A stretch of DNA of 64,000 nucleotides from a candidate division FCPU426 bacterium (GTDB taxonomy: Bacteria; Oederibacteriota; JAAXVQ01; JAUVAV01). Positions within the stretch are counted from its first letter, which is position 1, and each line of letters starts with the position of its first letter. The notes under the pieces were generated by a model that saw only the letters and a program-made list of their open reading frames with translations, was not told the origin of the DNA and did no database searches. The DNA is taken from contig JBFLYH010000002.1 in the NCBI GenBank assembly GCA_040756875.1, positions 863,078 through 927,077 on the forward strand, written 5' to 3'. This document shows, piece after piece, positions 1 through 12,185 of this stretch. The position numbers and the translations under genes are program-made.

Positions 1-1092
1 ACGGCGGATACGATCGAGCAGTTTAAAATCATACGCTCGGAGAATATCACCTGCGATACGACGTTCTATGACACGCTGGAGATCCGTGTGCCGGATATTT
101 ATTATCCTGCAGCCACGCAGTGGACGATCGGGTTGCACGAAGGCGGATATGCAAATTATTTCAGTCTGCACAAACCGAGCGGGGCGACCGGGACGTTTGC
201 CTTTGATTTTTTGCGCGATCTCGGATGGAGCGGGATAAAGACGTTTTATATCGAAGCCAGGGTCACGGCCGATCCCAGTGATTATTTCAAAATGGATTAT
301 GTCCGTGTCTTTCATAATGCGACCGACAAAGTATATTTATGGAGGGAAGAATTCAACGGAGAAATCGCCCTGGCCTGCAAAAACTGGTGGGATGAAAACG
401 AAGACAGCACGCTGAATGCCACCATTAGCCCGGATCCCACGCAAACGTACGCCCAAATCCAAATTGTCGGTCCTGAAATATTCGGAAAAGTAATAACACC
501 GGGCGTGTATTGGAATCCTTCCAAATACAGCCGGGTATCGCTGGGGGTGGTTTCGATTTCTCCCAACACCGAGTGTACGGTGGAAGTGATCGATTTGATC
601 ACCTATCAACATGCCACCCTGGGAACCATCACCCAGGAAGGGACATACGACTTCAATGTTTTCGAGGCGCCGGGCTGGAAATGGACCCAGGAAGAATTGC
701 TCGCGATCCAGGTTTGGGTCAGCGCGGATCAGAGCGGGAAAAACTGCCTGATCGACTACATCCGCATTTATTCGTTCAAGGAGACCACGCCCACTCCCAC
801 CCCCGATATAACGCCGTACTTTCCAGAGGGCGGATATGCCAGGCCGAATCCCTTCCTGCCCACCAGGGGGCAAAAAGCGTCTTTTAATTTCCGCCTCCCT
901 CAGGCGGGTGCGGCTTACACCATCCGTATTTTCAATACCCGTGGCCGGCTGGTGCGGACGCTGGGGACGTCCTCGCGGCCGGAATGGGACGGCAGGGACG
1001 AAATGGGAAATATTTGCGAGGGCGGAATTTATTTTTATCAGATCGAGTCAGGCGGGTGGCGCATCAATGGACAGGTGGTACTGATTAAATGA
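1..1092 (+). CDS. Secreted protein (5'-truncated) with TPTP linker and C-terminal FlgD-Ig / T9SS-like sorting domain
   Basis: Frame is open from base 1, so the true start lies upstream. TTPTPTP linker, then PNPF...IRIFNTRGRLVRTL...WDGRDEMG...GIYFYQI...GQVVLIK, typical of FlgD-Ig/T9SS-type C-terminal domains. Confidence 0.75.
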   Translation, partial: TADTIEQFKIIRSENITCDTTFYDTLEIRVPDIYYPAATQWTIGLHEGGYANYFSLHKPSGATGTFAFDFLRDLGWSGIKTFYIEARVTADPSDYFKMDYVRVFHNATDKVYLWREEFNGEIALACKNWWDENEDSTLNATISPDPTQTYAQIQIVGPEIFGKVITPGVYWNPSKYSRVSLGVVSISPNTECTVEVIDLITYQHATLGTITQEGTYDFNVFEAPGWKWTQEELLAIQVWVSADQSGKNCLIDYIRIYSFKETTPTPTPDITPYFPEGGYARPNPFLPTRGQKASFNFRLPQAGAAYTIRIFNTRGRLVRTLGTSSRPEWDGRDEMGNICEGGIYFYQIESGGWRINGQVVLIK

Positions 1093-3275
1093 GGCGGCGG
1101 ATGAAAACGGAGAGCCGGTTCGTCTTTCGGTGTATCGCAGCCGGCGCCCGGCGGATCGGCACGGCGGCCCTTTTGCTGGCTTGGGCGGGTTCAGCCTTTG
1201 CCTATTTCCAGGATGCGGTGGATGGCGTGCGGCCCGCGGGCATGGGCGAAGCCTTTACCGGCGTGGCTGACGATGTCAACGCCATCCTGTTCAATCCCGC
1301 GGGGCTGGCGCAACTCCGGCAGATCGAAATCAATGGCATGTATTCCGATTTGTTTTCAGGTTTGCATACGCGGCTGTATAACGGGCAATTCGACCATGTC
1401 GGCTATAATTATCTTTCCGTGGCCGTGCCCATCGCCCCCTCGTTAGGGACCGTGGCCGCAGGCTGGGCGCAACTTCATTCGGTGTTTTATAAGGAAAACA
1501 CGTTTATTTTATCGTTCGGCCGCAGCATCTGGGCGCCTTACACCATGGCACTGGGAATCGAAGTCAGCGCCGGCGTCAATCTTAAAGGCTTGCACTGGCA
1601 AGTGGAACCCAACGAATATACCACCAATCCAGATTACTTTCCTTTCGGTGAAAAATACAAAGCGGCGTTTACCGCTGACGCTGGAGTGCTGGCGGCAGTG
1701 GGAGAAACCCTGCGGGTGGGAGCGAGCGTCGATAACATCATTCCCGCCGATGTAGGCTTGGCGGTCCATGAGCAGGTGCCCGTGGTTGTCAGGGCGGGGG
1801 GGAGTTATCGTTGGCCGTGGCGCTGCTGGTCCATGGACTCTTTATTGACGGCGGTGGAAGTGACGGCACGCAATCGGATTTACATACCCAAGGCCGGTGT
1901 CGAATCCTGGTGGTTCAACGAACGTCTGGGAGTCCGGGCGGGGATTCATACCGAAGGGGTAACCGCCGGATTGAGCATCCGCGAGCGGATACCCGAATCC
2001 CCCTTGGGCATTCAGCTGGACTATGCCTTCGCCTATCCTTTCTATGTCGCGGACACCCTGGGGTCCCATCGCGTCGGTTTTCTACTGAGGTGGGATCCGG
2101 CCCCCGTTCTCCCGCCGCCATCGCAATCACCGCTACAGCTGCCCGACGTCTACTTGATTCCCAAAATGCAACTGGCAACGGCGCTCGTGCAAGCGATTAA
2201 CGATGCATCTCAGACCGCCCAGGACCTAGCGGATCGAGCGGAACAGGTGGCCACGGAAACCAGGACGCTGGCCTCCCCCGAAGCCGCCAGCAGAGCGGCC
2301 GCTGAAACCGCCAAACTTACCGAGGCCGCGCAGCAGGTTCGGACCCTTGCCGAGCAGGCGGCGGCACTGGCCAGTCGCATGGCAAAGCTGCGCCAGTTGG
2401 CGGAGGCGGAAGCCGTTTTGAATGAATTGCAAATGATTGAGCAAACAGCCAGCCGCAGGACAACGGAATTAGGCAGGACGCTGGACGAGGTTTACACCGC
2501 GCGTTATTTTGTACCCGAAAAAGACCGAAATACCATTGTCGTCGGCATACAAACCGAAATTTTTTCGGATTTCGGGCCGCGGGAGCAAATCGACCCGAAG
2601 CTGATGATATTGAGAACATATCTTGAAGCGGAAACCGGGATGAAGATCGAATTTCGCGAATACAATATTGACAATCTTAAAAACGATTTCATTCATGGTT
2701 ATATCGATGTTTTGGCCGCCTATTCAGCGGTGTTGCAACCCTATGTGGAATATCAATCGCTTAAGCCGATTGCGACCATTCAGACCAAAGGCCAAACCAG
2801 CCAACCCTGCTGTTTGTTTGCGGCCAATGACCAACCGTTCGCCCGGCCCGAAGATTTGAAAGACAAACGGTTGGGATATTTCCACTCGGAAATCCTTCCG
2901 CACATCAAGGAATATTTTTATCCCGCGAGTGGGCTTTATAACAATCTTCATTATTTTAGAAACACCTTTAAATTCAAAAACGGTCCGGATGCCTTGGGTG
3001 CACTGCAAATGAAAGGCGTGGATGCCATCGTGGGGTTCGCTTATATGCTGAAAATAGCGGACAATCTCAATGCGGAATATCCCATTGGCATTAAATGCAT
3101 TGCGAAATCAAAGCTGATCCCCAATCAACCGCTCTATTACCGCCCGTCGAGAAATCCGGTGAAACAGCAGCAAATGAATCTGTTGGCGGATGCCCTGTTG
3201 CGTTTTCACGAGAATCCCGCGGCGGAGTCTTTCTTGAATTACTTCGGAATCGACCGCTTTGTGCCGGTCCAGTAA
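1089..3275 (+). CDS. PorV/PorP-like outer-membrane beta-barrel fused to coiled coil and PhnD-like (phosphonate-type) periplasmic binding domain
   Basis: Signal peptide (AFA|Y); GVRPAGMGEAFTGVADDVNAILFNPAGL N-terminal motif; barrel end QLDYAF...LGSHRVGFLLRW at ~aa335; Pro linker; Ala/Glu-rich helix aa~360-465; YLEAETGMKIE...EDLKDKRLG...VDAIV...CIAKSKLIPNQPL PBP-like domain. Confidence 0.7.
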   Translation: MRRRMKTESRFVFRCIAAGARRIGTAALLLAWAGSAFAYFQDAVDGVRPAGMGEAFTGVADDVNAILFNPAGLAQLRQIEINGMYSDLFSGLHTRLYNGQFDHVGYNYLSVAVPIAPSLGTVAAGWAQLHSVFYKENTFILSFGRSIWAPYTMALGIEVSAGVNLKGLHWQVEPNEYTTNPDYFPFGEKYKAAFTADAGVLAAVGETLRVGASVDNIIPADVGLAVHEQVPVVVRAGGSYRWPWRCWSMDSLLTAVEVTARNRIYIPKAGVESWWFNERLGVRAGIHTEGVTAGLSIRERIPESPLGIQLDYAFAYPFYVADTLGSHRVGFLLRWDPAPVLPPPSQSPLQLPDVYLIPKMQLATALVQAINDASQTAQDLADRAEQVATETRTLASPEAASRAAAETAKLTEAAQQVRTLAEQAAALASRMAKLRQLAEAEAVLNELQMIEQTASRRTTELGRTLDEVYTARYFVPEKDRNTIVVGIQTEIFSDFGPREQIDPKLMILRTYLEAETGMKIEFREYNIDNLKNDFIHGYIDVLAAYSAVLQPYVEYQSLKPIATIQTKGQTSQPCCLFAANDQPFARPEDLKDKRLGYFHSEILPHIKEYFYPASGLYNNLHYFRNTFKFKNGPDALGALQMKGVDAIVGFAYMLKIADNLNAEYPIGIKCIAKSKLIPNQPLYYRPSRNPVKQQQMNLLADALLRFHENPAAESFLNYFGIDRFVPVQ

Positions 3276-3287
3276 AAGGATGAAGGA

Positions 3288-4565
3288 ATGAGTGCGAGCA
3301 TCATGGTTAGAAAGCATTGGCCGGTGATCGTCGGCGGAGTCATCCTAGGCATGACCTTGTCCGCCGTGGGTGTCATATGGATGAATATCAGGGATTTCGA
3401 GCGTCAGCGTAATCGCGAACACTTTGATCTGGCGCAGAACATCGCCCGGACGTCCATGGTGTTCATTAACAACTTGCAGTACGATTATTTCCATCAAATC
3501 ATCAGACTGTTGACCCAGATCTCCTTTATTCCCTACATGGATGTCAATCTCGAAGGCAAGACCGTCCTGCGCAGCGGCTTGGCGCCGGAGCGGTTTCCGT
3601 CATGGCCGGAACGCGCCGCCGACTCGTGGGTCCATTTGGACGCGAAGCAAAATCTGGTGTTTGTTCAGCAGCCGCTGGAACTGAAAGGCGTCAGGAACGC
3701 GGAATTGCGCATGGTATTTTCGCAGGCCGGATTTCAGCAGTCCAAGCAGATGATCGGATATGCCATTGTTTTAATCCTCGTCCTGTTGAGTCTGACCCTC
3801 TTTTTCATGTCTCTGCTGGCCCGTGCCCACCTGGCTCTGGCCCAGGCGGAGAAAAACAAGTCGGAAATGATCCGCCGCATTGCCCACGACGCCAAACAGG
3901 AATTGACGGTCATTGTCGGAAAAACCGCGGTCAATCTGAGCAGACTGAAAAAAGGCCCCGGCAACGAGCAGTTGGAACGGGATTTGAAGCTGACGCAGGA
4001 GAGCGCCGAGTCCATCGAAAATTATCTGAACAACTTGAACGACCAGAGCAAACTCGCCGCCGGACAGACTGAAATCATTGCCGCGGACATCGATATTGTC
4101 AAAGTCATCAGAAACGTTTTGGAAAGCCACGCCGAAACCGTGGCGCAGTACGGTTTGAAATTCATTTTTGAACCGGCCGCCGCCCCTTGCCGCGCCTGGG
4201 CTGATCCGCACGCCGTCAAACGGGTCCTGGTCAACCTGATCCACAATGCCATCAAGTATTCAAGCCCCGGTAGCGTGATCGAGATCAAAGTCGAAACCAA
4301 CGGCTTATGGCAGAAATTATTCGTCCGCGACCAGGGCGCGGGCATTGCCCCGGAAAACTGGGAAAAAATCTTTGAACCGTATGTTCAAATCGATCCCAAA
4401 GGCAAAGGCATGGGGCTTGGCTTGACGAATGCCAGGCAATTGATCCGGCGTTTGGGAGGCGAACTGAAAGTGATCGCGAGCCAAAAGGGCAGGGGAACGA
4501 CTTTTGCATTCACGCTTCCCATCCACGAGATGTCAACCCCGGTCACGGAAGGAAGGGCGACATGA
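3288..4565 (+). CDS. Membrane sensor histidine kinase (2 TM, periplasmic domain)
   Basis: Two TM helices, H-box IAHDAKQEL, N-box NLIHNAIKYS, DQGAGI, G2 GMGLGL. Confidence 0.9.
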   Translation: MSASIMVRKHWPVIVGGVILGMTLSAVGVIWMNIRDFERQRNREHFDLAQNIARTSMVFINNLQYDYFHQIIRLLTQISFIPYMDVNLEGKTVLRSGLAPERFPSWPERAADSWVHLDAKQNLVFVQQPLELKGVRNAELRMVFSQAGFQQSKQMIGYAIVLILVLLSLTLFFMSLLARAHLALAQAEKNKSEMIRRIAHDAKQELTVIVGKTAVNLSRLKKGPGNEQLERDLKLTQESAESIENYLNNLNDQSKLAAGQTEIIAADIDIVKVIRNVLESHAETVAQYGLKFIFEPAAAPCRAWADPHAVKRVLVNLIHNAIKYSSPGSVIEIKVETNGLWQKLFVRDQGAGIAPENWEKIFEPYVQIDPKGKGMGLGLTNARQLIRRLGGELKVIASQKGRGTTFAFTLPIHEMSTPVTEGRAT

Positions 4566-5959
4566 CCAAAATACTGGTATTGGACGACGAAGTCCTGGTT
4601 TTGGAAACCATCACCGGCATCCTGCAGGGCGAAGGCTACACAGTGGAATCGAGCCGGCAGACGGAAGGGGTCCTGCAACGCATCGCCGACTTTAATCCCG
4701 ATCTGGTCACTTTGGATCTTCGCTTTGGCGACGATGAAATGGCGGGCGTCAAAGTGATCCAGCAGATCCGGGGGAAGTATTCGCGGGAGCAGCTTCCCAT
4801 CATTGTGATCAGCGGCCGCGGAGACGCCGTGAAGCTTAAGCAGCTTCTCAAACAGGGGTTGGATGACTACATCTACAAACCGTTCAAATCGGAAGAGTTG
4901 CTGGAAAAAGTTCAAACCAGCTTGGCCAGACGCCAGCCCAGCCGTGAAAACGGGCGCGAGCGGATTGACACCGAGATGATCGGCGGTCAAGCGATCATGG
5001 ACCTGATGCTCAAACTGGAGCGCCGGGCGAAAGCGCAATTGGACACTCTGATTTTGGGGGAAAACGGAACCGGCAAGGACATGTTTGCGAAACTGTATCA
5101 CCAACTCAGCCCGAGGCAGGACCAGCCGTTTTACCACATCAACTGTCCGGCCATCCCGCCCACTTTATTCGAGGCGGAAATCTTCGGCCGGGAAAAGGGG
5201 GCCTATTCCGGCGCCGTGTTCAGCCGCGGAAAAATCGAAGAGGCGGCCGGGGGCATCGCCTTTTTCAATGAGATTGGGGAACTGAATCTGGACGTGCAGG
5301 CCAAATTGCTGCATTTGTTCGACACGGAAAAGAAGACTTTTTGCCGCGTGGGCGGCAATCAACCGATTGAACTGGATGTCATCGTCATTGCGGCCACCAA
5401 CCGCAATCTGGAGCAAATGGTCAAGGAGGGTCGCTTTCGGCAGGATTTGTTTTATCGCCTTAAAACCGAACCCATCGTGCTTCCTCCGCTCAGGCAGCGG
5501 CGCGAAGACATACCCCTGCTGATCGATTACTTCATCAAAAAATACAACCAGCGCTTCAGAAAAAACATACAGCCTGCCGCACCCTCCTTGGCGGCACGAA
5601 TTTCGAAACTGGAGCTGTCCGGAAACGTCAGGGAACTGGAGAAAGGGCTGGAAGTGGCAGTGGGCAATTGCCGCGGCAATAATTTGGCCTGGGAGGATTT
5701 TGCCGATTTTTTTCCATCCCACCCCGATACGCTGCCACAACCGGGCGGCGAGAAAAGCATTTACGAATTGGACTATCTGGCCATGCGCGAGTATGTCAAA
5801 GGCAAGACCGAAGAGTTGGAGAAGGATTACCTCCAATACCATTTGGCTCAAAACGGGTTTAATCCCACCCAAACTGCCGTGAAGCTGAACATGAAAAACA
5901 CCAAGTACATTTACGAGCGTATGCGTTTGCTCAACATTAAGTTGAATGAGTATAACTGA
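4562..5959 (+). CDS. Sigma54-dependent response regulator (REC-AAA+-HTH, NtrC family)
   Basis: REC domain (LVLDDE...TLD...KPF), Walker A GENGTGKD, GAYSGA loop, VIAATNRNL, FRQDLFYRL, GNVREL, Fis-like C-terminus; ATGA overlap with the HK. Confidence 0.93.
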   Translation: MTKILVLDDEVLVLETITGILQGEGYTVESSRQTEGVLQRIADFNPDLVTLDLRFGDDEMAGVKVIQQIRGKYSREQLPIIVISGRGDAVKLKQLLKQGLDDYIYKPFKSEELLEKVQTSLARRQPSRENGRERIDTEMIGGQAIMDLMLKLERRAKAQLDTLILGENGTGKDMFAKLYHQLSPRQDQPFYHINCPAIPPTLFEAEIFGREKGAYSGAVFSRGKIEEAAGGIAFFNEIGELNLDVQAKLLHLFDTEKKTFCRVGGNQPIELDVIVIAATNRNLEQMVKEGRFRQDLFYRLKTEPIVLPPLRQRREDIPLLIDYFIKKYNQRFRKNIQPAAPSLAARISKLELSGNVRELEKGLEVAVGNCRGNNLAWEDFADFFPSHPDTLPQPGGEKSIYELDYLAMREYVKGKTEELEKDYLQYHLAQNGFNPTQTAVKLNMKNTKYIYERMRLLNIKLNEYN

Positions 5960-6227
5960 CTATAAAGATATTGAAGTAGTAAGGCATATCCGTACCGAAG
6001 TCAGGCCTCCCCTTACTTGATTCCCCTATTTCCTAGCAGTCGGCAGACCATGGGAGATCCCGGCGCCGGAGGCGCATCTTGAGTGGCAGTGGGTATGTTT
6101 TATGGGAAAGAAAAAACAGGACAAAACCTAAGCAAATAAAACGTTTTTGCAACCATCGCGAACGTTAGTTTCCCTGGCCTCCTTGGTGGCTTTTTTTGGC
6201 AAGCATACCAGAGGAAGGAATAAAACC

Positions 6228-6243
6228 TGGCACGGTTTCTGCT
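6228..6243 (+). promoter_or_regulatory. Sigma54 (-24/-12) promoter
   Basis: TGGCACGGTTTCTGCT versus consensus TGGCACG-N4-TTGCW (one mismatch), correct GG-N10-GC spacing, 48 bp upstream of the ECF start. Confidence 0.8.
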
Positions 6244-6291
6244 CTAACATAATAGCGGGCAAAAGCAGCTTTACCACGCCAGGGGGGAAGA

Positions 6292-6867
6292 ATGAAAAAC
6301 CTTGAACCGCTGAACGACGAAAAATTACTGCTCATGCTTCGCCGGGGATCAAAGGATGCCGGAGAAGTTATTTTTAAACGGTATTACCCGGCGGTGCTGG
6401 GGCTGAGCCGGAAATACCTGTGTTGCCAACATGACGCCGAAGACATTGCCCAGGAAGTTTTCTTACGCGCCTTGGCCATGGATAAAATAAGGAAGTTCAG
6501 GGGAGAAAGCAGCCTACGTACCTGGCTTTTTAGGATCGCCATCAATTTGTGCTATTCCAAGCACCGTAAACACCGGGAAAAGTTGCTGCTCAACGACGAA
6601 AAGCATCCGGAACCGGTTATTCCCTCGGGAGGCCCTGACCCCGAGGAAGAGGCCATGCGCCTGGAAGCGAAGCATCAACTGCGGGTGGCGCTGTGGAAGC
6701 TTCCGAAAAAGTATCAAACCGTGATCGCGCTTTTTTATCAGGACCAACGGACGTACAGCGACATCGCGAAAACCCTTCGGCAGTCCGTGGGAAGTATCGG
6801 CGTGTGCTTGAAACGCGGCCGGGCCATCTTGAACCGGCGATTGGCCTACCGGGGCGTATGGGTTTAA
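6292..6867 (+). CDS. ECF (group 4) RNA polymerase sigma factor
   Basis: DAEDIAQEVFL, FRGESSLRTWLFRIAIN (region 2); LPKKYQTVI...TYSDIA...GSI...LKRGR (region 4); GGGGGAAG RBS. Confidence 0.92.
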   Translation: MKNLEPLNDEKLLLMLRRGSKDAGEVIFKRYYPAVLGLSRKYLCCQHDAEDIAQEVFLRALAMDKIRKFRGESSLRTWLFRIAINLCYSKHRKHREKLLLNDEKHPEPVIPSGGPDPEEEAMRLEAKHQLRVALWKLPKKYQTVIALFYQDQRTYSDIAKTLRQSVGSIGVCLKRGRAILNRRLAYRGVWV

Positions 6868-6992
6868 AATTCCTCAATAATGATTGACGCGGCCTTTTTC
6901 AGCCCCTAAAATACTGCCCCAATGCAGGTCATTCGTTTCCCCGGCAAACCGGAGTCCTTCCGGCAGGGGCAAACTAAAACGGAGGAAAAGGA

Positions 6993-7538
6993 ATGGAAAG
7001 CAGGCAGTGGGTAGTAGGCACGATGGCCGTATTGGGTTTGTTGGTTGCAGCCGGATGCGCGCAACCGCCGGAGCAGGAAAAGGGCGCCGCGCAGACAGCC
7101 ATGCAGGCCGCACTCCAAGGCGGGGCCGAAACCTATGCGATGGCGGCTTGGAATGAAGCCAAGACCAAATGGGACGCCGCCGAGCAGCAGATGCAGCAGA
7201 AAGTGTATGCCCAAGCGAAAGTGGCGTACTTGGAAGCCAAAGCCGCTTTTGATTCATCTCTGGGCCAGGTCGAAGCCGGCAAGCAGAGCATGATAGCCGC
7301 CAACCAAACGGCATTGGCCGAGATGGAAAAGAGTTGGAGTGAAGCCACGGCGTTGTCTAAAAAAGCCATGAAAAAAATGTCGGTTGAATTAAAACAAGCC
7401 TGGACCGCGGAATCCAAAATGGTGGATGACGCGTTGAAAACGGCCAAGGACAACCTGGCGGCTCCGGCCGAAATTAAGCAAAAATTGGATGAAGTCAAAG
7501 CGTTGGTCGATAAATGGCTGGGTGAATTAAAAAAGTAA
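6993..7538 (+). CDS. Helical lipoprotein (DUF4398-like)
   Basis: Lipobox VAAGC, GGAGG RBS, all-helical A/K/E-rich sequence, followed by a terminator. Confidence 0.7.
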   Translation: MESRQWVVGTMAVLGLLVAAGCAQPPEQEKGAAQTAMQAALQGGAETYAMAAWNEAKTKWDAAEQQMQQKVYAQAKVAYLEAKAAFDSSLGQVEAGKQSMIAANQTALAEMEKSWSEATALSKKAMKKMSVELKQAWTAESKMVDDALKTAKDNLAAPAEIKQKLDEVKALVDKWLGELKK

Positions 7539-7588: not shown

Positions 7589-7901
7589 ATTTATAAACGT
7601 ATATAATAAAAGAAGCCTGCTTTTCCGGTTCGTCTTATCCGCAGTCGTCCCCAGTCGACAGCTCGTTTGGGAATTTGGTCTGGAGGCATAAAAAAGTCTT
7701 TCAATTCCTCCCGGGCGTTATATAGTAAAGCCGGGCGAAGGCCTGCGGCGCAGGGCAAACCGCCGCGGACCCGAGGCGGCTTTCGGCCAAAGAAACCCTG
7801 GACGCGTTCGTTCATCCCATCAAAAAGGAGTGCCTTCGCCGGGGTGATCTGGCGAGCGCATTTCCAATCCAAGCAACAGCCGTTTGCCAGGAGGAACCGA
7901 C

Positions 7902-8948
7902 ATGAAAAAAAACAATCTGGTTTTAACGGTACTAGTGCTGGGCATGCTGGTTTTTCTTTCGGTGGGATGCGGACCCGGGCAAAAAACGGGGCAAAGCCAG
8001 GTCCTTTATCATTGCACCATGCACCCTCAAATCATCCGGGACCATCCCGGGAAATGTCCGATCTGTGGCATGGATTTAGTTCCATTCACACCTCCGGCCA
8101 CCCCCGAAGCGACGAAGCCCGGCCTTTCGTCCGAAGGAAGCGCGATGACCATGCCGCAACAGGACCAGGCGGTCGAGGTGGATGTCCGCCGCCAGCAGCT
8201 CATCGGCGTCAAGACGGTCGTAGCTACGCGGCGAACGCTGGAAAAGACCCTGAGGGTGCAGGGAGAAGTGGCGCACGATCCGGAGATGTACCAGGCCCAG
8301 GCCGAATATCTCCGCGGCCTGGCAGCCGGTGGCGAAGGGGGGTTGCAGAGCGCCAGCCGTTTGAAACTGGAGCACATGGGCATGAGTCCTGATTTGATCC
8401 GCCGCCTGGAACGGCGCGGGCGGCCGCAGCGCAACCTGTTCGTCCGGGACCAGGACCCGGTATTTTGGATCTATGTTTATTTCTACGAGGCCGACCTGCC
8501 GTTTCTTTCGCTAGGGCAGCCGGTTGCCGTCCGGGTGCCCAGGCTGGGCGGACAACATGACGGCGTTTTGAGGGGTTTGCAGCCGTACGTGGAGCCGGCC
8601 GCCCGCACAATCCGGGGCATTGTGGAAGTGCGCGATCCTGAATTGCGGTTGTATGCCGGCTTGTATGCGGATGCCGAGGTTCGCCTGACGCTGCCCGAAG
8701 CAGTGGTCATCCCAGCCTCGGCCGTGCTCGATTCCGGCACCCGGCAGGTCGTGTTTGAGCTGACCGGGCCGGGCCGGTTTGAACCGCGGGAAGTGCAGAT
8801 CGGCGCCGTGGCGGGCGAATTCGCCCAGGTGCTAACCGGAGTGGAAGCCGGCGCCAGCGTGGTGACGGACGGGAACTTCATGCTCGACGCCGAAAGCCGC
8901 CTGCAGTCGGTGGTGAAAGAGACGGCTCCGGCCGGCCACCAGCACTAG
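7902..8948 (+). CDS. cusB: CusB-family heavy-metal efflux RND periplasmic adaptor
   Basis: YHCTMHPQI...PGKCPICGMDL heavy-metal-binding domain; MFP body; GNFMLDAESRL; AGGAGG RBS before ATG 7902. Confidence 0.88.
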   Translation: MKKNNLVLTVLVLGMLVFLSVGCGPGQKTGQSQVLYHCTMHPQIIRDHPGKCPICGMDLVPFTPPATPEATKPGLSSEGSAMTMPQQDQAVEVDVRRQQLIGVKTVVATRRTLEKTLRVQGEVAHDPEMYQAQAEYLRGLAAGGEGGLQSASRLKLEHMGMSPDLIRRLERRGRPQRNLFVRDQDPVFWIYVYFYEADLPFLSLGQPVAVRVPRLGGQHDGVLRGLQPYVEPAARTIRGIVEVRDPELRLYAGLYADAEVRLTLPEAVVIPASAVLDSGTRQVVFELTGPGRFEPREVQIGAVAGEFAQVLTGVEAGASVVTDGNFMLDAESRLQSVVKETAPAGHQH

Positions 8949-9023
8949 CGGACCCGCTCGCGGCGCCTTCCCGGACGGTCCGGATCGGCGCCGGAATCTT
9001 TGCTGCCAGGGAGAGTCGTGCCT

Positions 9024-12000
9024 ATGCTGTCCAAGTTAATCGCCTGGTCCATCCGCAACCGCATCCTGGTCACCCTGCTGACGATCCTGGTCATCGGCTG
9101 GGGGGCTTATGCCCTGGTAAAAACACCGGTGGACGCCATCCCGGATTTATCCGACGTGCAAGTCATCCTCTACACCCAGTATCCCGGGCAATCACCCCGC
9201 GTCGTGGAAGACCAGATCACCTATCCCCTGACCACGGCCATGGTCTCAGTGCCGGGTGCCCAGGCCGTACGGGGGTATTCTTTCTTTGGCTACTCGCTGG
9301 TCTACATTATTTTTAAGGACGGCACGGATCTGTATTGGGCCCGGAGCCGCGTCCTGGAGTACATCAATTACGCCCAGCAGCGCCTGCCTGCCGGCGTGCT
9401 GCCGATCCTGGGGCCGGACGCCTCGGGGGTGGGCTGGGTGTACCAGTATGCGCTGGTCTCGGACCAACGCCCCCTGCATGAGCTGCGCTCGCTGCAGGAT
9501 TGGTATTTGAAATACGAACTGGCGAGCGTTCCCGGCGTGGCCGAAGCCGCCAGCCTCGGCGGCTTCGTCAAACAGTACCAAGTGACCGTCGATCCCAGCC
9601 GCCTGCAGGCGCTGGGCCTCACGCTGGGAGACGTGGAGGCGGCCATCAAAGCCGGCAACCAGGACACGGGCGGCGAAGTGGTGGTGCTGGGCGAGCGCGA
9701 GTACATGATCCGGGGGCTGGGATACCTCAAATCCATCGGCGATTTGGAGCAATTGCCGGTGGCCTGGCGCCCCAACCAGCAGGGCGGCACCCTGCCGGTG
9801 TATCTCAAGGACGTGGCAGACATCCGGCTCGGGCCGGAAATGCGCCGCGGCGTGGCCGAACTCGACGGCCAGGGCGAAACCGTGGGCGGGATCGTGGTCA
9901 TGCGGTTCGGCGAAAACGCCCGGGACGTCATCCGCCGCGTGAAGCGCAAGCTGGAAGAGCTCAAGGCCGGGCTGCCGGCGGACGTGCGGATCGTGCCGGT
10001 GTATGACCGGTCCCGGCTGATCACGCGGGCCATCGACAATCTGCGTGGCAAGCTCTTCGAGGAAATGCTGATCGTGGCCCTGGTCTGCCTGATGTTTCTG
10101 TTTCACGCCCGGAGCGCGCTGGTGGCGGTGTTCACGCTGCCGACGGCCATCCTGATGTCTTTCATCGTCATGCGCAGCCAGGGCATCAATGCCAACATCA
10201 TGTCCCTGGGCGGGATCGCCATTGCCATCGGCGCCATGGTCGACGCCGCCATCGTCATGATCGAGAACGCCCACAAACACCTGGAACGGGAAGAGGCGCT
10301 GCCGGCCCGGCGGCGCCGGCCGCACTGGCAGGTCATCCTGGAGGCTTCGCAGGAGGTGGGGCCGGCCCTGTTCTGGTCCCTGCTGGTGATTACCGTCTCG
10401 TTCGCGCCCATTTTCGCGCTGGAGGCGCAGGAAGGGAGATTGTTCCGGCCGCTGGCGTTCACCAAGACTTACGCCATGGCGGCCGCGGCGCTTTTGGCCG
10501 TGACCATCGTGCCCGTGCTGATGGGGTTCTTCATCCGCGGGCGCGTTCCGTCCGAAGCCAGCAATCCCGTGAACCGCTGGCTGTTGCAGCGCTACCACCC
10601 GCTGGTGCAGTGGGTCCTGCGCCATGCCCGGGGCGTGCTGCTGGCCGCCGCGGGGGTCGTGGCTTTGGGCGCGGTGCCGCTGCTGCGCCTGGGCACGGAA
10701 TTCATGCCGCCCCTCTTCGAAGGCGACCTCCTGTATATGCCTACCACCCTGCCCGGATTGTCCATTGCCGCGGCCCGCGACTTGCTGCAGCGGACCGACC
10801 GCCTGATACGCTCTTTTCCCGAAGTGGAGCGCGTGTTCGGTAAAATCGGGCGGGCCGAAACCGCCACCGACCCCGCCGGGCTGGACATGATCGAGACCAC
10901 GATCCAGCTCAAGCCCCGCAAGGCCTGGCGCCGCGGCCTGACGGAAGCGAAGCTGATCGCGGAGCTGGACCGCACGGTGAAGCTGCCGGGGCTGACCAAC
11001 GCCTGGACCATGCCGATCAAGGCGCGCACGGACATGCTGGCCACGGGGATCAAAACGCCGGTGGGAATCAAGCTGTCAGGGCCGGACCTGGGCGAATTGC
11101 AGCGCCTGGGGACCCAGATCGAGGCGGTTCTGCGCCGCGTGCCGGGAACGGGATCGGCCTTTGCCGAGCGGGCCATGGGGGGATATTATCTGGACATCGC
11201 CATCGACCGGCCGGCCGCGGCCCGCTACGGCGTCAATGTGGAGGACCTGAACCGGGTGATTCAAATGGCCCTGGGCGGCATGAACGTCACCACCACGGTG
11301 GAAGGGCTGGAACGGTATCCGGTCAACGTGCGCTACAGCCGTGAATTGCGGGACAGCGTGGAATCCATCCGGCGCGTGCTGGTGGCCACGCGGACCGGCG
11401 GGCAAGTGCCCTTGGCGCAAGTGGCGGACATCAAGCTGTCGCCCGGGCCCATGGTCATCCGCACTGAAAACTCACGGCCGAACGCCTGGGTCTTCGTGGA
11501 CGTGCGGGGCGTGGATCTGGGGACGTACATCCACCGCGCTCAGACGGCCATCGGGAAAGCGCTGCGACTGCCGGAGGGGTACACCCTGACTTGGAGCGGC
11601 GAATTCGAATACCTGCAGCGGCTGCACCGCCGGCTGCTGCTGGTGGTTCCCCTGACGCTCTTCATCATCGTGCTGATCCTATATCTCAACACCCGCTCCC
11701 TGGCCAAGACCGCCATCGTACTGCTGGCCGTGCCGTTTTCCCTGGTCGGCGCCCTGTGGTTTGTCTACGCGTTGGGATACAATTTAAGCCTGGCGGTCTG
11801 GGTGGGCCTGATTGCGCTCGCCGGCCTGGACGCGGAAACCGGCGTGGTGATGCTGTTGTATCTGGACCACGCTTACGAGGCGGCGCGCAGCCGCGGCCGT
11901 ATGAACGGGCTTTCCGATTTGCGCGTTGCGATCGACCAGGGGGCGGTCCAGCGTGTGCGCCCCAAAGTCATGACCGCGGCCGTCATCATTGCAGGCTTGC

Positions 12001-12185
12001 TGCCGATTTTCTGGGGCGCGGAGGCCGGGTCGGACCTGATGCGGCGGATTGCGGCTCCCATGATGGGCGGGGTGGTGACCTCGGTGCTGATGGAGCTGGC
12101 CGTGTATCCGGCGATTTATTATTATTGGCGCGGGTGGCGCTGGCTGCGGCCCGGACGCCGCGCGGAAAAACCCTTGCCAGCATAG
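9024..12185 (+). CDS. cusA: CusA/CzcA heavy-metal efflux RND permease (Cu/Ag type)
   Basis: PVDAIPDLSDVQVI, DLYWARSRVLEY, GAMVDAAIVMIENAH, EGDLLYMP, RVRPKVMT. Confidence 0.95.
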   Translation: MLSKLIAWSIRNRILVTLLTILVIGWGAYALVKTPVDAIPDLSDVQVILYTQYPGQSPRVVEDQITYPLTTAMVSVPGAQAVRGYSFFGYSLVYIIFKDGTDLYWARSRVLEYINYAQQRLPAGVLPILGPDASGVGWVYQYALVSDQRPLHELRSLQDWYLKYELASVPGVAEAASLGGFVKQYQVTVDPSRLQALGLTLGDVEAAIKAGNQDTGGEVVVLGEREYMIRGLGYLKSIGDLEQLPVAWRPNQQGGTLPVYLKDVADIRLGPEMRRGVAELDGQGETVGGIVVMRFGENARDVIRRVKRKLEELKAGLPADVRIVPVYDRSRLITRAIDNLRGKLFEEMLIVALVCLMFLFHARSALVAVFTLPTAILMSFIVMRSQGINANIMSLGGIAIAIGAMVDAAIVMIENAHKHLEREEALPARRRRPHWQVILEASQEVGPALFWSLLVITVSFAPIFALEAQEGRLFRPLAFTKTYAMAAAALLAVTIVPVLMGFFIRGRVPSEASNPVNRWLLQRYHPLVQWVLRHARGVLLAAAGVVALGAVPLLRLGTEFMPPLFEGDLLYMPTTLPGLSIAAARDLLQRTDRLIRSFPEVERVFGKIGRAETATDPAGLDMIETTIQLKPRKAWRRGLTEAKLIAELDRTVKLPGLTNAWTMPIKARTDMLATGIKTPVGIKLSGPDLGELQRLGTQIEAVLRRVPGTGSAFAERAMGGYYLDIAIDRPAAARYGVNVEDLNRVIQMALGGMNVTTTVEGLERYPVNVRYSRELRDSVESIRRVLVATRTGGQVPLAQVADIKLSPGPMVIRTENSRPNAWVFVDVRGVDLGTYIHRAQTAIGKALRLPEGYTLTWSGEFEYLQRLHRRLLLVVPLTLFIIVLILYLNTRSLAKTAIVLLAVPFSLVGALWFVYALGYNLSLAVWVGLIALAGLDAETGVVMLLYLDHAYEAARSRGRMNGLSDLRVAIDQGAVQRVRPKVMTAAVIIAGLLPIFWGAEAGSDLMRRIAAPMMGGVVTSVLMELAVYPAIYYYWRGWRWLRPGRRAEKPLPA

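Follow-up and report, generated by a model that had tools for sequence, protein, structure and literature searches.

A PorV-like barrel fused to a solute-binding fold as a candidate trans-envelope adaptor for a two-component cascade

In a stretch of 64,000 nucleotides from a candidate division FCPU426 bacterium (GenBank assembly GCA_040756875.1, contig JBFLYH010000002.1, positions 863,078 to 927,077), hereafter the window, a single open reading frame (ORF) of 728 amino acids (aa), free of stops (1089-3275, + strand), joins a PorV-like beta-barrel through a helical linker to a periplasmic binding protein (PBP) domain, as a preliminary description of this DNA had proposed. The barrel-PBP fusion is real and conserved. 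With a co-encoded surface protein carrying a type IX secretion system (T9SS) tag, referred to as the cargo, and with a histidine kinase, a sigma-54 activator and an extracytoplasmic function (ECF) sigma factor, it is best explained as a unit that signals across the envelope and is assembled from T9SS components. That the fusion is an outer-membrane-anchored adaptor which couples the surface protein to the two-component cascade, and which passes on the state of the cargo by proximity or clustering, is a reading that we regard in its entirety as somewhat probable. The whole analysis is computational, combining sequence comparison, predicted structures and a predicted complex.

Architecture and conservation of the fusion protein

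The AlphaFold2 model of the mature protein (86-row alignment; mean predicted local distance difference test score, pLDDT, 93.5; predicted template-modelling score, pTM, 0.61) starts with the barrel, followed by a short Pro-rich region that is disordered, then three helices and finally a binding domain with two lobes. A predicted Sec signal peptide (aa 1-38, AFA/YFQD; 1089-1202, +), read from the sequence and with AYFxD kept at this place in homologues, precedes the barrel domain (aa 39-335; 1203-2093, +); the protein reads as an integral barrel with a cleavage-type signal and no lipobox Cys. The public gene call (P0003) begins at aa 47 and comprises 682 aa, so that the signal peptide is lost along with the start of the mature protein (1089-1226 affected), and a Logan record has 724 aa.

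The barrel belongs to the PorV/PorP/FadL clan by profile, model and fold matches. Among the 48,161 solved chains that were compared, PorV (6h3i_F) is its top match (Z 30.6, root-mean-square deviation, rmsd, 2.2, 262 residues aligned), and FadL-family chains score lower (Z 26.1-28.8). A further match of the barrel is 8gl6_F (E 4.5e-10). The profile PorV_fam NF033709 recognizes aa 46-243 (E 2.2e-10) at 40.6 bits, under its curated cut-off of 90, and one homologue (P0012) passes the PorP_SprF cut-off (28.6 vs 22.3). An N-terminal hatch as in FadL-like barrels is marked by N69-P70-A71, invariant in 22 fusions. The motif SHRVGFLLRW is, as previously noted, the last barrel strand, ending at aa 335 and directly followed by DPAPVLPPP, with which a flexible Pro-rich segment begins (aa 336-355; 2094-2153, +; pLDDT <50 at aa 343-351). 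At the other end of the protein, aa 479-728 (2523-3275, +) form a binding domain of the ArrX/AioX/PhnD fold that lacks the oxyanion pocket, with PF12974 matched at aa 507-727 (57 bits vs a cut-off of 27, E 2.5e-15). Identity amounts to 0.46 in the barrel, 0.29 in the PBP and 0.11 in the linker, which is the least conserved part.

The junction is not a mis-assembly, as 30 distinct barrel-PBP fusion proteins were found and fusion loci occur in 9/15 genomes of one order. Full-length homologues in other assemblies (P0004 and P0005) share 58-59% identity with the fusion, and one Logan contig, which may be the source of this DNA, spans window 1-6900 with zero differences. Both domains are present in 24 of the 150 listed representatives of 50% clusters, this protein included. 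Within the order, the PBP profile is found in 13/15 genomes, in two of them weakly, and elsewhere in the phylum in 2/84 genomes as weak stand-alone proteins. In the tree all 30 fused barrels belong to a group of 35 with weak support (FastTree 84) beside TPR-tailed barrels, the remaining five members being three barrels with OmpA-like tails and two that are apparently truncated; one tail swap followed by duplication would fit this topology. Three further loci (L041, L043 and L045) carry the full fusion and were kept out of the counts because they are possible duplicates of counted loci. Word-index protein searches returned 5, 3 and 4 proteins, the full HMMER search being more sensitive. A barrel-seeded contig scan gave mostly generic barrels among the matches listed, and the metagenome scan gave no confirmed relative. 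In the ESM Atlas, where no feature match exceeded 0.76, a result that bears neither on novelty nor on absence, the ten structure matches listed were barrels alone, barrels with TPR, OmpA, LysM or FlgD tails, or the PBP alone.

The fusion had been called unusual, which needs to be divided. This genome (G000 in the locus labels) encodes 43 PorV-like barrels and a barrel with a periplasmic tail is ordinary in it, since 28 of them have tails of at least 90 aa. The tail of one PorV-like barrel (G000:C2:500751-502601, -) resembles by eye a second small beta-barrel ending in Phe. The PBP tail and the link to a kinase are, on the other hand, uncommon indeed: a kinase is found within 3 kb of only 2/43 barrels, the fusion in the window being one of them. 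The genome also has 39 matches to T9SS tags, of which 21 directly adjoin a barrel gene.

The gene module and the predicted contact with the kinase

In the window four genes follow one another with overlaps or hardly a gap, from the cargo through the fusion and the kinase to the sigma-54 activator, and the ECF sigma gene comes next. The window holds the 3' part of the cargo gene (1-1092, +), which starts about 230 nt upstream and whose stop overlaps the ATG of the fusion (ATGA). It encodes two jelly rolls resembling carbohydrate-binding modules (CBMs; CBM-type fold matches with Z about 12) and a T9SS-type C-terminal domain (about 793-1092), with matches to FlgD_ig, CHU_C and Por_Secre_tail that are every one below cut-off. 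This tag is a distinct, dedicated subtype, here termed 'CEGG': a hidden Markov model built without this genus scores 114 bits on the cargo, and the runner-up in this genome reaches 49.5. From the fold, the gene pairing and the dedicated tag subtype we infer an outer-membrane location for the barrel and binding of the T9SS C-terminal tag by it. Tag binding looks like the job of the barrel subfamily, because at locus L042 a barrel of the same subfamily with an OmpA-like tail is paired with the same tag subtype. At other loci the cargos have, by eye, propeller-like or other domains.

The histidine kinase (3288-4565, +) has two hydrophobic stretches (by eye) around a periplasmic sensor of about 125 aa (3381-3767), in which no Pfam match was found, followed by HisKA and HATPase domains. 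Its gene overlaps by ATGA with that of a receiver and sigma-54 activator of NtrC/AtoC type (4562-5959, +), in which the GAFTGA loop reads GAYSGA. A pattern scan with the -24/-12 consensus of sigma-54 promoters finds a promoter-like site, CTGGCACGGTTTCTGCTC (6227-6244, +), 5' of the ECF sigma gene (6292-6867, +; Pfam), the likely output, and rpoN is encoded in this genome. Over 15 other fusion loci from 8 genomes, a kinase is present in 14/15, a sigma-54 activator in 13/15, a tagged cargo in 13/15 and an ECF sigma gene in 8/15, the ECF genes being counted as fetched and some loci sitting on short contigs; the gene order is shuffled, with at least three arrangements. A sigma-54 site is found near 12/15 ECF genes (chance expectation 0.15 per 500 bp), a count obtained after the pattern had been relaxed upon reading the window site by eye and including one site (L040) far from the likely start. 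The first pattern gave 9/15, with 0.09 expected per 600 bp, and missed the window site.

The PBP is of class II fold, with a PF12974 domain in 20/20 members of its family. Its best fold matches among solved chains are AioX (Z 20.8) and ArrX (Z 20.5), ArrX also tops the profile search (E 1e-14) and Foldseek, and a PBP of sterol transport is close in fold as well (7t1m, E 2.7e-14). The oxyanion pocket of AioX is described as being formed by Tyr88, Cys106, Tyr131, Ser161, Ser163, His192 and Asp210 (PMC5908839). With the positions mapped through a HMMER alignment to ArrX, that of Tyr88 approximately, none of these seven residues is kept in this PBP or conserved over the 20 members. Tyr545 and Phe650 occupy the positions of Cys106 and Asp210, and in the Cys106 and His192 columns Cys and His are absent from the 20 members except for one His at Cys106. 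Other residues at cleft-equivalent positions are moderately conserved (Y545 10/20, Q572 14/20, E at 651 14/20, Y652 16/20). In this genome, which is 100% complete, PhnE has no match over cut-off, and none was seen in the fusion loci; the arsenite oxidase AioA (TIGR02693) was not found in it either, Arr and Arx lying outside that search. Phosphonate uptake is rejected on the lost pocket together with the missing PhnE, and arsenite sensing on the lost pocket together with the missing oxidase. As none of the seven pocket residues is kept, the PBP does not appear to be a phosphate or arsenic oxyanion sensor, and the best reading of the modelled fold is that it has been reused as a protein adaptor.

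With respect to the linker, a single coiled coil of about 100 aa had been expected, and the model replaces it with three Ala-rich helices of 36-39 aa each (aa 356-394, 397-433 and 437-472, within aa 356-472; 2154-2504, +), most likely an antiparallel bundle. As a unit they align to the elongated helical bundles 6xz6_C (Z 13.0, rmsd 2.5, 129 residues) and 5vtl_A (Z 13.9, rmsd 2.5, 131 residues), both three-helix bundles, a Z near 13 between helical structures speaking for arrangement only. Each helix is 5.4-5.8 nm long, and one continuous helix would measure 17.6 nm. The linker modelled here is therewith most likely a bundle of about 5.5 nm rather than a rod, and a single coiled coil spanning the periplasm is unsupported, the form modelled being monomeric and compact. 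Over the 30 distinct fusions the linker measures 49-270 aa and falls into three length classes, 49-92 aa in 13 (often Pro/Ala-rich), 125-168 aa in 13 and 251-270 aa in 4, which suggest zero, one or two bundle units. It is plausible that the flexible stretch, the bundle, the PBP and the kinase sensor together reach near 20 nm, given usual domain sizes and a typical periplasm width, which may differ in this organism.

The predicted complex of two copies of the kinase sensor with one PBP scores 0.66, and the best of three controls scores 0.00. This mark is reached by 116/157 solved complexes and 2/215 mismatched pairs, counts that hold roughly here, because the alignments were our own and the three-chain layout differs from that of the calibration. 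Contacts agree between runs by at least 91%, with partner pLDDT of at least 85. The predicted interface comprises aa 627-643 and 662-666 of the PBP, nearly all in one lobe, and aa 60-73, 86-96 and 132-135 of the kinase, and includes kinase Q64/Y65 and PBP A638/Q640. A sequence search found no solved relative of the kinase sensor; other PBP-kinase complexes may still be alike. The trees of PBP and kinase sensor are congruent over 21 loci (Mantel r 0.655, 0/5000 permutations), with most sister pairs common to both and paralogues of the same genome falling apart. Cumulatively, the PBP probably docks on the periplasmic sensor of the inner-membrane kinase, as modelled. The preliminary description had held that a helix could place the ligand-binding domain beside this kinase. 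The placement agrees with the kinase at 14/15 loci, the congruent trees and the complex; the periplasm-spanning helix does not stand, neither for the three short helices here nor for the segment of 49-92 aa in 13/30 fusions; and the loss of the PhnD/AioX oxyanion pocket puts the term 'ligand-binding' in doubt.

Several neighbouring genes were noted besides. After the ECF sigma gene lies an Ala-rich helical, lipoprotein-like gene (6993-7538, +) without a Pfam match, which is kept in a genome of the same genus (L021), and then come, by eye, CusB/CusA-like heavy-metal RND efflux genes (7884-12185, +), which are downstream in the same-genus locus too. Upstream of the window (G000:C2:845436-857203, +) are ORFs of 2353 and 1529 aa, the first with a start that is SpvB/RHS-like by eye. 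At L023 (7769-10170, -) the cargo and barrel genes are separated, by eye, by a hydrolase-like gene and a pair of HipA-like genes, and the cargo is split in two frames.

Variants, mechanism and alternative explanations

The PBP of this family also occurs with other partners. At five loci, this genome included (G000:C2:360898-367301, -; alike at L040, L151, L152 and L153), a separate PBP gene of the family follows a TolC-family gene and is accompanied by a kinase, a sigma-54 activator and, in 4/5, an ECF sigma gene; the signalling plug thus has TolC as another partner in the outer membrane. Barrel-free fusions join the PBP to two or three cargo-type jelly rolls (L027:2875-5292, L028:221-2683, L034:8020-9783 and P0101) that are homologous to those of the cargo (E 6e-29 to 2e-6), the one at L034 with kinase, activator and ECF sigma gene alongside. 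A third kinase-activator-ECF unit with the same sensor and no PBP (G000:C1:1428298-1439550, -) is followed by a Kelch-repeat protein and a tagged protein of 1514 aa with repeated jelly-roll-like domains. At L158 (213-3649) and L159 (5538-9929) a TolC-like gene and a weakly related PBP are found, by eye, with an MlaE-like permease, and in L159 with an ABC ATPase, which may represent the transporter context that gave rise to the adaptor. Outside the order, at L154 (1253-7908, genome G048), a weak PBP match has a kinase and a molybdopterin-oxidoreductase-like gene as neighbours, an ArrXSR-like arrangement by eye.

In the mechanism that we propose, the outer-membrane barrel would hold the C-terminal tag of the co-encoded surface protein, like PorV-type shuttles, while its tail, to judge from the predicted fold, would hang into the periplasm on a flexible spacer of changeable length. 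The PBP, no longer an oxyanion sensor, would dock as an adaptor on the periplasmic sensor of the kinase, as the predicted complex and the co-inheritance suggest. The kinase would then phosphorylate the sigma-54 activator, which would turn on the ECF sigma factor from the -24/-12 promoter; the domains and the site are seen in the window, and the flow is deduced from them. The input, the weakest step, is most likely the state of barrel and cargo as a pair, which might be loaded, might cluster on a glycan surface or might come close enough to reach the inner membrane, and the signal would be passed by proximity and not down a rigid rod. A more far-reaching formulation, which would amount to a class of surface signalling so far undescribed and in which a T9SS-type shuttle barrel shows an interchangeable sensor outside, a covalent pseudo-PBP on a modular spacer of zero, one or two helical bundles directly switches the kinase, and the PBP-kinase-sigma54-ECF plug has been rewired at other loci to TolC-like channels and soluble CBM-like domains, is tentative and we would not presume it to hold.

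A number of observations weigh against the adaptor mechanism. The cargo domains differ widely from locus to locus, one fusion locus (L038) is without a nearby kinase and no cargo is visible on two short contigs. Short disordered linkers offer a conformational signal no obvious route. The activator loops that were read out (8 of 17) are all degenerate and none is exactly GAFTGA. The complex was run with alignments of its own and a 2+1 layout, unlike the calibration, and its interface is no better conserved than the rest (0.43 vs 0.42 in the kinase, 0.39 vs 0.41 in the PBP). Congruent trees are expected from any operon inherited whole, not only from contact, and no PBP adjoins the third kinase that this genome encodes with a sensor of this family.

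The adaptor mechanism and two of its rivals all have a tethered PBP act on the kinase. The PBP might still be a small-molecule sensor that binds a ligand and activates the kinase in the manner of AioX, the barrel only positioning or feeding it; the ligand would perhaps be a sugar set free at the cell surface, or else a hydrophobic compound arriving through the FadL-like barrel. The different, partly conserved residue set at cleft-equivalent positions, the closeness of 7t1m, the FadL-family barrels at Z 26-29 and the weaker TolC-PBP relatives beside ABC-permease-like genes (L158 and L159, by eye) are in line with this, but PorV outscores FadL, the barrel subfamily keeps the tag subtype even with an OmpA-like tail (L042), and a predicted kinase contact almost wholly in one lobe would be unlike a closure-gated readout. 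We regard such a sensor as doubtful. It is rather improbable that the unit gives feedback on secretion or assembly, reporting barrel assembly, engagement of an SprA-like translocon or membrane spacing and tuning ECF-driven surface genes, similar to PorA-PorXY-SigP or RcsF. An SprA-like ORF of 2149 aa in this genome, recognized by six matching pieces that are all below cut-off, three linker length classes that look as though set by distance and a TolC-type variant without cargo would agree with it; single genomes (G003, G014), however, contain several paralogous modules that differ in linker length and in the domains of the cargo, so that distinct inputs fit better than one housekeeping gauge, and the regions before the cargo genes showed no ECF-type motif in common.

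The most sceptical explanation is that the envelope is not bridged at all and that the PBP is one of many swappable tails (OmpA, TPR and others), or is cleaved and soluble. The 28/43 barrels with long tails, the OmpA-tailed barrels that nest within the PBP-fused clade and the poor conservation of the linker can be cited for it. Against this stand a fusion kept in 30 divergent proteins, the kinase at 14/15 loci and the predicted complex, which passes (0.66 vs 0.00) and would be compatible with cleavage, and we consider the absence of contact very unlikely.

Relation to known systems and significance

AioX-AioS-AioR and ArrXSR likewise have a PBP of PF12974 fold encoded together with a kinase and a response regulator, and the AioR regulator is of AAA+/RpoN type (PMC5908839; PMC8050422). 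Unlike in AioXSR, the PBP here is fused to a barrel and lacks the seven pocket residues, aioA is missing and an ECF sigma factor appears to be the target. In the QseG-QseE-QseF system of E. coli, the outer-membrane-attached QseG binds the periplasmic domain of the kinase, which leads via a sigma-54 activator to the ECF sigma gene rpoE (PMC6075780), and the same logic extends here from kinase to output. QseG, however, is a lipoprotein of the inner leaflet, in contrast to an integral barrel with surface loops, surface cargo and a contact of PBP fold (PMC6075780). The module works like QseG-QseE-QseF and is built like AioXSR, while being a member of neither.

Cognate T9SS shuttles share the barrel fold (the match to 6h3i_F given above) and the genetically linked, C-terminally tagged cargo; the present protein differs from them in scoring under the PorV_fam cut-off, in its periplasmic tail of 390 aa, in occurring outside Bacteroidota and in the two-component link. 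PorA-PorXY-SigP of Porphyromonas gingivalis also brings T9SS cargo, kinase and ECF sigma factor into one regulatory loop, but there the PorA tag binds PorY directly in the periplasm, and here the barrel-borne PBP is the predicted partner, with a sigma-54 activator in between (PMC12152298). RcsF-IgaA resembles the present case in that a tethered domain must cross the periplasm and spacer length counts; there is no homology, and RcsF, a lipoprotein, targets an inhibitor and not the sensor of the kinase (PMC5736177).

The barrel-PBP fusion is apparently undescribed. No published description was found, judged on titles and abstract openings with most subscription journals and supplements outside the coverage, and the terms 'outer membrane' and 'fused' are absent from the main text of a review of signalling by solute-binding proteins (PMC8050422).

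Known signalling from the outer membrane to a kinase employs lipoproteins (QseG, RcsF) or the cargo itself (PorA). If the proposed mechanism is true, an integral barrel that brings along the ligand of its kinase would depart from these designs, and T9SS shuttle barrels would gain a role in signalling. The PBP would also show clearly how a solute-binding fold can be put to new use as an adaptor between proteins, and the predicted PBP-kinase interface supplies specific testable residues. The family is a natural experiment, with about 30 versions of varied spacers and sensor heads in addition to barrel-free and TolC-linked forms.

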